Notes under the pieces: model-generated
The model's database searches: none
What the model saw: only the letters and a program-made list of their open reading frames with translations
Told to the model about the DNA's origin: nothing
Shown: positions 18,627 through 20,440 of the stretch, one piece after another
Layout: every line of letters begins with the position of its first letter
Numbering within the stretch: position 1 is the stretch's first letter
Position numbers and translations under genes: made by a program
DNA from: Candidatus Hermodarchaeota archaeon
Lineage (GTDB): Archaea > Asgardarchaeota > Heimdallarchaeia > Hodarchaeales > Hodarchaeaceae
Length of the DNA stretch: 32,000 nt
Direction of reading: 5' to 3'
NCBI GenBank assembly: GCA_048886185.1
Contig: JBHLKY010000010.1
Span: forward strand, 138,526-170,525

Positions 18627-18795
18627 TTTAATTTAAACTCCTAAAAACTACAATTGAAGGGAAAAGACAACCATTTATTAATCTTTAGTTATGAGAACAA
18701 GGAATTTAGATATTAAAAGATAACTGAATCAAAAGTTAGAAATGTATTATAAAATTAATAGAAATCAGGAGACTAATAACAAATCGTAATATAGA

Positions 18796-18951
18796 TTATT
18801 TTTTCCGTCGAAACGTATATCTTAACTCTTTCTTAAGCTCATTTTGTCTTCTTAATAGCTTGTGACGGGCTTTAATCCCTGTTACAGTCTGTAATTGCCT
18901 ATCAATTTTTATTAGTTCTTTCTGATAGAATTTATGTTTATCATTTGTCAT
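18796..18951 (-). CDS. 51-aa basic helical protein MTNDKHKFYQKELIKIDRQLQTVTGIKARHKLLRRQNELKKELRYTFRRKK (not in the ORF track)
   Basis: Hand translation; AGGA upstream of the ATG; helix-turn-helix hairpin-like composition. Confidence 0.55.
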   Translation of the reverse strand: MTNDKHKFYQKELIKIDRQLQTVTGIKARHKLLRRQNELKKELRYTFRRKK

Positions 18952-19621
18952 TTTCTTATTCCTAGTGAGTTTAAAAGCTATTAAGAATCAATTAGCTTTA
19001 CAAATTAGTATTAATATTCCACTATATCAACTCTTCTAAAAGTTAAAGTCCCATAAAAGAAACTAAGGATATAGAAACTAATCGTATGGATTCTATATTA
19101 AAGAATTAAGGCTTATAAAAGCTAGTATCTCTGTAATTCAGGTAATTCATGTAACAGAGAATGAGATCTATTATATTAATTGATATTGTCTTAAAAATTT
19201 GTCATAAGAAATGTCGCTAATAAAATAAGCTTTCAGAATAATATTGAATAATAGAACCATTCAGGTTTGAGCTATTCTTAGGGGGATAAATTTATTATTC
19301 TTTCTTACAAGAAAAAAGGTTATAAAACGAGAGTAATATATTAGAAAGTACTTCTTGAAAGGAATGGATTTTATTCAATTATTCTCTCATTAAATTTTGA
19401 CCAATTAAGGCACTAAAGTAAGACTTAAGCTCAAACTTTAATTAAATGAAATTAAGTAAGCTTTATAAATAATGAAGGCCCATCCGTTTGCGAAGAATCT
19501 ATTGATGGATTAACAGATATGTAAAATAAAGAAAAGTTGGTTAGTTAAAGTAAATAAAGGATAAGTATTTGTGAATTTCAACAAACTACAAAATAATTGA
19601 AGGATGAACGGTGATTAAGTA

Positions 19622-19690
19622 ATGCCAAAAAAGAAAGCAACTAAGAAAAAAGAAACTGCCAAGAAAAAAACTACTACTAAGAAGAAATAA
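19622..19690 (+). CDS. 22-aa lysine-rich peptide MPKKKATKKKETAKKKTTTKKK (not in the ORF track)
   Basis: GGTGA RBS with a 7-nt spacer, the same geometry as genes starting at 12371 and 31285; four KKK blocks. Confidence 0.6.
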   Translation: MPKKKATKKKETAKKKTTTKKK

Positions 19691-20005
19691 ACTGATTCCG
19701 CAAGAAGGGAATTATGACTGCCTTACATATTCAAGAAAAGTCATTTGTAATATACTCAAAAGAGTTTCCACAAAAATGTTTTTGAAATCCACATAGATGA
19801 AAATGATGGATCCTCAAGATAATAAAAGGAGAAAAAAAGAAGAATAAAATGCTTAGAAACAAGATTGGGAAAACCAAGATCAATGGGATGATGAGGACAA
19901 TAGGGAACATCATGAAAAGTGGGAGGAAGTTGATTAAATCCTTGTTTACCCTCTATTTTCAATCACTTCTTTTTTTATTTACCAGCCAGCTAAGCGTTGA
20001 TTTTA

Positions 20006-20368
20006 ATGTTGGTGAAAAATTTGGTTAGTTTTTGTGAGATATGTGGATCAATATTAATTCCAAAACCAAAAAAGAAAGATATGAAAAAAGAAATTGTCTC
20101 TCTATTTTGCAATTCTTGTAAAAAAGGGATTCAAAGAGGTTCCAATGAAATCTCATATCTAGTAAAAACTAAGATTCCCCATAGAGCAAGTGAACGATTA
20201 ACTGTTATTGAATCAACATTCGATGTTCTTCCTACCATTCGGAATCCATGTCCCCGATGTGATAATCATGAAGCTTACTATTGGGAAGGTGGAGATCGTC
20301 GAAAGCCAGAATGGGAGTCGATGACTTATTACAAGTGTAAGAAGTGTTCATGGATTTGGTTTGAATAG
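20006..20368 (+). CDS. TFS/RpoM (RPB9-like) double zinc-ribbon paralogue lacking the acidic cleavage hairpin
   Basis: FCEICGSIL...CNSC and CPRCDNHEAYYW...TYYKCKKCSWIW. The hairpin reads EGGDRRKPEWES instead of the canonical QTRSADEP. Confidence 0.85.
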   Translation: MLVKNLVSFCEICGSILIPKPKKKDMKKEIVSLFCNSCKKGIQRGSNEISYLVKTKIPHRASERLTVIESTFDVLPTIRNPCPRCDNHEAYYWEGGDRRKPEWESMTYYKCKKCSWIWFE

Positions 20369-20440
20369 GAACTACTTAATAACATACAAATTCCTCCCTC
20401 AATAATGACTTCTAAAAGATTTTCTCATATAAGTTGAATA

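Follow-up and report, generated by a model that had tools for sequence, protein, structure and literature searches.

The window (the whole stretch of 32,000 nucleotides analysed) contains on its + strand an open reading frame, ending at 20368, for a TFS-like protein. The protein is 115 amino acids long if translation begins at TTG 20021, and 120 if it begins at ATG 20006 (+ strand), an in-frame upstream codon that would lengthen it by 5 residues. Its N-terminus and some later stretches read MLVKN-LVSFCEICG...CNSCKK...CPRCDNHEAYYWEGGDRRKPEWESMTYYKCKKCSWIWFE. The gene is here called C10-type. It likely starts at TTG 20021 (20021..20368, + strand), because this codon is aligned with the ATG of the orthologues, which begin MVNFCE, and lies 5 nt downstream of a conserved Shine-Dalgarno-like GGTGA (20011..20015, + strand; kept in G010 and G012). 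The extent of 20006-20368 given in an earlier note on this DNA is therefore correct for the reading frame and probably not for the start. About 40 nt before the start, a T-rich TATA-like block, TTTTTTTATTTA (19970..19981, + strand), is kept in the two closest species (G010 and G012) and is a candidate for the gene's own promoter. A scan of the DNA with bacterial promoter and terminator models, which are not applicable to archaea, returned the same counts as in shuffled sequences. Comparison of the gene with seven orthologues gave dN/dS values of 0.13-0.35, i.e. purifying selection, and its sequence is identical in contigs from 4 DNA runs; among the runs listed for this stretch, none was of RNA. 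The gene is therefore real and under selection.

The neighbourhood of the gene

The gene is part of a conserved module of about 1.6 kb (window positions ~18786-20378), which consists of a divergent basic ORF, the TFS gene itself, and, between them, about 1 kb of DNA that is conserved and poor in ORFs. This module was found in unrelated genomic contexts in six species. The divergent ORF (18796..18951, - strand) encodes 51 very basic residues and forms the outer edge of the module; in five other species, too, it precedes the orthologous TFS paralogue by about 1 kb. Between the two genes lie two micro-ORFs. A Lys-rich micro-ORF of 22 aa (19622..19690, + strand) is preceded by GGTGA and kept in G010 and G012. 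An acidic, Trp-rich micro-ORF (19797..19937, + strand) is intact in the same two species (36 and 43 aa) and is a frame-broken remnant in the window. The frame break is present in 4 DNA runs, with no indel variants there, and the GGTGA of this micro-ORF is mutated to GATGA in the window, which also has an insertion of ~80 nt between the two micro-ORFs.

In G003, G008, and G015 the ~1-kb slot is occupied by the gene for a histone of 74 aa whose N-terminal tail is basic (PF00808, E 3.5e-13). The G003 histone (L049:6008-6232, + strand) starts MTKKPKRKAG..., and 118 nt separate its gene from the TFS paralogue, which follows downstream on that strand. Further downstream at this locus, whose slot is shared by G008 and G015, there is a GGACT/AIG2-like gene. 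A second module copy, of the histone type and decaying, occurs in G010, and G019 has the basic ORF with neither the histone gene nor the TFS gene beside it. No integrase was found in the flanks, nor any viral or known defence gene. Rfam searches of the window returned nothing at the gathering threshold, and those of the 1.5-kb ORF-poor stretch only sub-threshold matches at chance level.

The earlier note had drawn attention to a nearby "conjugation operon" and to a possible shared role. In the window this operon is a ubiquitin-like set of genes (JAB, ThiF/E1, and two E2-like genes). When the orthologous loci of five related genomes (G010, G012, G003, G008, and G015; ±8 kb where available) were compared with the window, no window ORF of at least 90 aa was shared except the TFS gene. 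None of the window's other genes of this size recurs at these loci, and the closeness of the studied gene to the ubiquitin-like operon is therefore incidental.

Zinc ribbons and hairpin

All eight cysteines of a TFS protein are present (C5, C8, C30, and C33, and C77, C80, C106, and C109 in the numbering of the 115-aa protein). As the earlier note had stated, both zinc ribbons are intact, each with a complete CxxC...CxxC pattern in the translation. The N-terminal ribbon (20033..20119, + strand) carries a Lys-rich loop, PKPKKKDMKKE, with 4 residues more than in the sister paralogue described below. It is followed by a linker (20165..20215, + strand) with the pattern K-I-x-H ... T-V-I-E, in which I, H, and E are invariant and which is common to the studied protein, the sister paralogue, and the canonical factor of the same genome (TFS1). 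In the structure of Sulfolobus TFS4 bound to RNA polymerase, the linker is the element that docks on the polymerase jaw (PMC8448823). The C-terminal TFIIS-type ribbon (20249..20347, + strand) matches the Pfam family Zn_ribbon_TFIIS (PF01096) at 21.9 bits, with a cut-off of 21. The archaeal TFS model of NCBIfam (TIGR01384, TFS_arch) matches the protein end to end at 43.8 bits, below the equivalog cut-off of 64.75. In a scan of the genome with TIGR01384, the studied protein scored 43.4 bits vs 81.9 for TFS1.

The hairpin of the C-terminal ribbon reads YYWEGGDRRKPEWESMTYYKC, with the loop GDRRKPEWES. According to alignments and AF2 models, its remodelled part is W88-EGGDRRKPEWE-S100 (20282..20320, + strand). 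In a MAFFT alignment of 103 TFS-like sequences, R93 falls on the Arg of TFS, and E97 on the catalytic Glu, with which it is aligned in more than 90% of these sequences. The Asp of the DE pair is replaced by P96 in the studied protein, by Q, E, S, or D in its orthologues, and by Glu in the C9-type sister. W98 is an inserted residue relative to TFS. The hairpin thus does not match the canonical Q-T-R-S-A-D-E: Arg and Glu are kept, Asp has become Pro, and Q and T are lost. The earlier note had contrasted this hairpin with the one that carries the DE pair in TFS/TFIIS; of that pair the Asp is lost and the Glu retained, and a second Glu (E99) is conserved as well. The canonical QxQTRSADE motif is lost (GDRRKPEWES in place of the QTRSADEAS of TFS1). 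With this motif gone, normal stimulation of transcript cleavage by the studied protein appears doubtful.

Across 24 family members Y87, W88, E89, K95, W98, and E99 never vary and R93 and E97 hardly do, whereas the position equivalent to the Asp varies (P/Q/E/S/D). No other part of the protein is as conserved as the hairpin, with its motif Y-W-E-x-x-[DN]-R-[RK]-K-x(1,2)-E-W-E. AF2 models of the studied protein (pLDDT 78) and of its own TFS1 (pLDDT 83) have the same strand-loop-strand layout, with loops of 10 residues (GDRRKPEWES) vs 9 in TFS1 (QTRSADEAS). The two cysteine pairs of the C-terminal ribbon are separated by 25 residues in the studied protein vs 24 in TFS1. The net charge of the hairpin is -1, the same as in canonical TFS1, and that of the C-terminal ribbon is 0; the whole protein has +7, largely from the Lys-rich loop of the N-terminal ribbon. 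The label "basic hairpin" given to the protein by the earlier note is therefore only superficially right. The analysis thus confirms a non-canonical TFS paralogue that is maintained by selection and has a conserved hairpin of a distinctive kind; the functions considered below are inferred.

Paralogues, distribution, and phylogeny

The host genome (4.84 Mb, 96% complete) has four TFS-like genes. One is the canonical TFS1 with WQLQTRSADEAS (QTRSADEA), which scores 81.9 bits and adjoins fibrillarin on a separate contig. Another is the C9-type sister copy with YWEAENRKKTEEWETT (64.6 bits), whose hairpin segment is WEAENRKKTEEWET and which has EE at the position of the DE pair. The studied C10-type gene is the third. 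It was therefore rightly called a TFS paralogue by the earlier note, and it is not the only, canonical TFS of its genome. The fourth gene (L004:1387-1851, - strand, contig C3) encodes 154 aa with an intact N-terminal ribbon and a degenerate C-terminal ribbon, in which the first CxxC knuckle is gone and S-R-G-D-E-A-S is kept, and ends in a long C-terminal tail rich in Lys. Similarly weak matches were found in several genus members. In TFS1 of the genus (own copy L001:1495-1833, + strand; G006 L036), the first N-terminal ribbon knuckle is C-x-C (FCECG/FCSCG), the usual form being C-x-x-C.

The genus was sampled through the host genome and 21 related MAGs labelled Candidatus Hodarchaeota, Heimdallarchaeota, or Promethearchaeota. 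Of the 21 related genomes searched, 20 have C9-type genes (21/22 with the host's own) and 7 have C10-type genes (8/22). Six of the seven C10-type genes were called by identity (57-72%) and the seventh by its position in the tree; the overall range of identity for orthologues is 56-73%. In other families of the class, the sole full-length match is a canonical TFS (QTRSGDEA). A word-indexed homologue search returned two close relatives only, and an exhaustive search of 1.84 billion representative proteins detected only four others with an RRKxEWE-type hairpin. When 185,579 species genomes were scanned with the motif pattern, the hits were confined to MAGs labelled Hodarchaeota or Heimdallarchaeota and one labelled Thorarchaeota.

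In a careful maximum-likelihood tree, C9-type and C10-type proteins form a clade (support 100/97). This clade is joined, again with support 100/97, by four non-canonical paralogues that are more distant and have E-[FY]-E loops; a MAG labelled Odinarchaeota is the source of two of the four. The family as a whole nests among Asgard and other archaeal TFS, in a tree built without the Sulfolobus TFS1-4 sequences. Because of the C9-type plus C10-type clade and the wider E-[FY]-E clade around it, the studied gene arose, by its place in the tree, through recent duplication of a non-canonical Asgard TFS that is itself older. The protein carries the R-[RK]-K-x-E-W-E motif of the Hodarchaeota family and falls into its clade. 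Its sequence is best explained if the gene belongs, as a lineage-specific member, to a family of non-canonical TFS proteins of Hodarchaeota (Asgard archaea). The tfs genes are known to have multiplied independently in Loki-, Thor-, and Heimdallarchaea (Fouqueau et al., PMC5715097), and no study of these multiplied Asgard copies was found in the literature.

Altered TFS paralogues also occur outside the family. G022 and G023 (another Hodarchaeales family) have second paralogues (L076 and L077) with the acidic-aromatic loops TKEDFEE and QTDEYDE. They were considered as members of the studied family and rejected, as a quick tree did not join them to it, which suggests that the hairpin was remodelled repeatedly. 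In G031 (another Heimdallarchaeia family), a protein of 105 aa (L080:193-507, + strand) has a TFS N-terminal ribbon and linker, with a Glu-rich tail replacing the C-terminal ribbon. Its layout recalls that of crenarchaeal TFS2 as described in PMC5715097.

Possible action on RNA polymerase

In the TFS/TFIIS fold, a small alteration at the tip of one hairpin converts a rescue factor into one that regulates RNA polymerase. Among such altered-tip factors only Sulfolobus TFS4 has, to our knowledge, been studied so far. The family described here has a different, strongly conserved solution, in which a hairpin of full length carries a basic triplet and Glu-Trp-Glu. Almost all genomes of the genus have a member of this family, and in some it has been duplicated again. 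The studied protein would probably bind RNA polymerase but not stimulate transcript cleavage in the normal way.

The earlier note had compared the protein with TFS4, an RNA polymerase inhibitor that is induced by virus infection. Like TFS4 of Sulfolobales (PDB 7OQY), the studied protein is a TFS paralogue with intact ribbons, without the DE dyad as such (although its Glu and a second Glu are conserved), and with three consecutive basic residues in the hairpin. However, the hairpin of TFS4 is about 8 residues shorter (tip of 7 residues vs 15 in TFS1) and carries KKK (PMC5715097), and the surface of its C-terminal ribbon is strongly positive (PMC8448823). TFS4 binds the rim of the funnel without reaching the active site and opens the DNA channel allosterically (PMC5715097, PMC8448823). 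A swap of the tip alone makes TFS1 an inhibitor (Fouqueau et al. 2017, PMC5715097). In the studied protein the hairpin is not shortened, the C-terminal ribbon is not positive, and E-W-E is conserved. The two proteins are of independent origin, and descent from a common TFS4 ancestor was considered and rejected: a phmmer search of the PDB with the studied protein found no TFS4 chain at E<=1, Foldseek placed the TFS4 chain 7oqy_Y only at rank 46 (E 1.8e-3, 16% identity), and the family nests among Asgard and archaeal TFS in the tree without TFS4. The analogy drawn by the earlier note is thus only partial. It holds for an altered-tip TFS paralogue that would regulate the polymerase, and fails for a factor of the TFS4 kind, given the full-length hairpin, the neutral C-terminal ribbon, and the retained Glu.

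Our preferred reading, which is tentative and falls a little short of an even chance, is that the protein is a secondary-channel factor that reaches through the pore, competes with TFS1, and most likely has no cleavage activity. Its binding to the polymerase is inferred from homology only. Since the ribbons and the K-I-x-H ... T-V-I-E linker are conserved, the protein would dock on RNA polymerase at the site of TFS1. As the hairpin is of full length, it could enter the NTP-entry pore and reach the active centre, with Arg93 and Glu97 in their usual places; the extra Arg/Lys, Trp98, and Glu99 would replace the geometry that is competent for cleavage. The protein would then compete with TFS1 and keep the polymerase paused or non-rescued. 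TFIIS lacking its DE pair (D290A/E291A) is a dominant inhibitor (PMC6863433), and this reading is favoured because inhibition by the mutant, too, comes from a hairpin that extends to the active site but has lost the dyad. The studied protein may therefore be seen as a natural counterpart of this mutant rather than as a rim binder of the TFS4 type. It differs from the laboratory mutant in that its tip is conserved and selected, one Glu is kept, and Arg/Lys, Trp, and Glu have been added. The TATA-like box before the C10-type copy and the scattered occurrence of this copy among species suggest that it is used conditionally, unlike the genus-wide sister copy.

The conserved glutamates also allow for a cleavage factor with a shifted acidic pair, in which E97 and E99, on either side of W98, would hold metal B instead of D-E; invariant at the tip, the two could still hold a catalytic metal. 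The added Arg/Lys and Trp would then change substrate preference (e.g. the depth of backtracking or the type of mismatch), and the genome would have specialised cleavage factors and no inhibitor. The alignment of the catalytic Glu with E97 in most TFS-like sequences, the invariance of W98 and E99, the EE that the sister paralogue keeps at the DE position, and a hairpin long enough to reach the active site are all consistent with this. However, the Asp-equivalent position is free to vary in the subfamily (P, Q, S, E, D) and the Q-x-Q-T portion of the motif is gone. Moreover, even conservative changes of the TFIIS Asp-Glu reportedly abolish activity (Jeon et al., 1994). A shifted pair is rather unlikely, and if it were true that the protein is an ordinary variant cleavage factor, the interest of the family would be modest. 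A global RNA polymerase inhibitor like TFS4, acting in stress or antiviral defence through positively charged binding at the funnel rim and allosteric opening of the DNA channel, is improbable. The RRK triplet, the lost Asp, the +7 charge of the whole protein, and the patchy species distribution (8 of 22 genomes) would fit it, and TFS4-RRR inhibits as TFS4-KKK does (PMC5715097). Against it stand the spacing of 25 residues between the cysteine pairs (24 in TFS1, with the TFS4 tip 8 residues shorter), the C-terminal ribbon of zero net charge where the TFS4 surface is strongly positive, the absence of a specific sequence relation in the phmmer and Foldseek searches given above, and flanks free of defence or viral genes. 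The logic by which positive charge inhibits in TFS4 does not transfer directly, because the charge of the hairpin is that of TFS1.

Eukaryotic RPB9 offers another model, that of a non-cleaving two-ribbon factor bound stably to the lobe/jaw and funnel surface of the polymerase, in which case the family might be kin to the ancestor of RPB9. The host lineage, Hodarchaeota, which is widely regarded as close kin of eukaryotes, would suit this reading. The domain layout is the same, some RPB9 hairpins read R-R-x-E-E in alignments, and RPB9 chains are the best full-length PDB matches of the studied protein both by sequence and by fold. The last result would be explained by the lack of a full-length archaeal TFS1 among the PDB matches: only a 57-aa C-terminal TFS fragment (1qyp) was matched by sequence, and TFS4 (7oqy) by fold. 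The studied protein scores 74-75 bits with a profile of archaeal TFS vs 41-42 with one of RPB9 and 43-49 with one of RPC10; in the wider ranges of the same comparison, the archaeal TFS profile gave 68-77 bits and the RPB9 profile 33-42. The preference for archaeal TFS holds with or without the hairpin columns, by a margin of 20-60 bits. In the careful tree RPB9 and RPC10 group together (92/75) and lie outside the clade of the paralogues. A forced clade of the paralogues and RPB9 was not rejected by AU tests (p-AU 0.75 in the quick tree and 0.30 in the careful one), which is expected of an alignment of ~115 columns. Two trees, two AU tests, and profile scoring thus leave orthology with RPB9 unsupported, and an RPB9-like role is very unlikely. 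The phylogeny that the earlier note had proposed as a check, carried out with RPB9 and RPC10 and without Sulfolobus TFS1-4, places the protein within archaeal TFS and speaks against kinship with RPB9. A broader version, which we consider highly unlikely, is that the R-[RK]-K-x-E-W-E and E-[FY]-E clade represents an old, non-cleaving, permanently bound two-ribbon partner of the Asgard polymerase. Such a partner could be the archaeal counterpart of RPB9 in function and perhaps in history.

Among known systems, canonical archaeal TFS/TFS1 (TIGR01384) is close to the studied protein, which gets its best score from an archaeal TFS profile. The two share two Cys4 ribbons, the linker motif, the hairpin architecture, and the Arg and Glu of R-S-A-D-E. 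The studied protein differs by E-G-G-D-R-R-K-P-E-W-E in place of Q-x-Q-T-R-S-A-D-E, an extra Trp, a score below the cut-off, and its coexistence with a true TFS1. The bacterial secondary-channel regulators Gfh1 and DksA, which are derived from or resemble Gre factors (PMC8448823), share the evolutionary logic of a cleavage-factor fold that regulates through an altered tip instead of rescuing. Their fold is unrelated, with a coiled coil in place of a zinc ribbon. The family bears on whether inhibition through the secondary channel arose repeatedly through different chemistry, and on whether Asgard polymerases already had RPB9-like non-cleaving partners. A further reading, which we also consider highly unlikely, is that the C10-type copy, with a tailed histone or charged micro-proteins encoded directly upstream, depending on the species, might couple polymerase pausing to chromatin.
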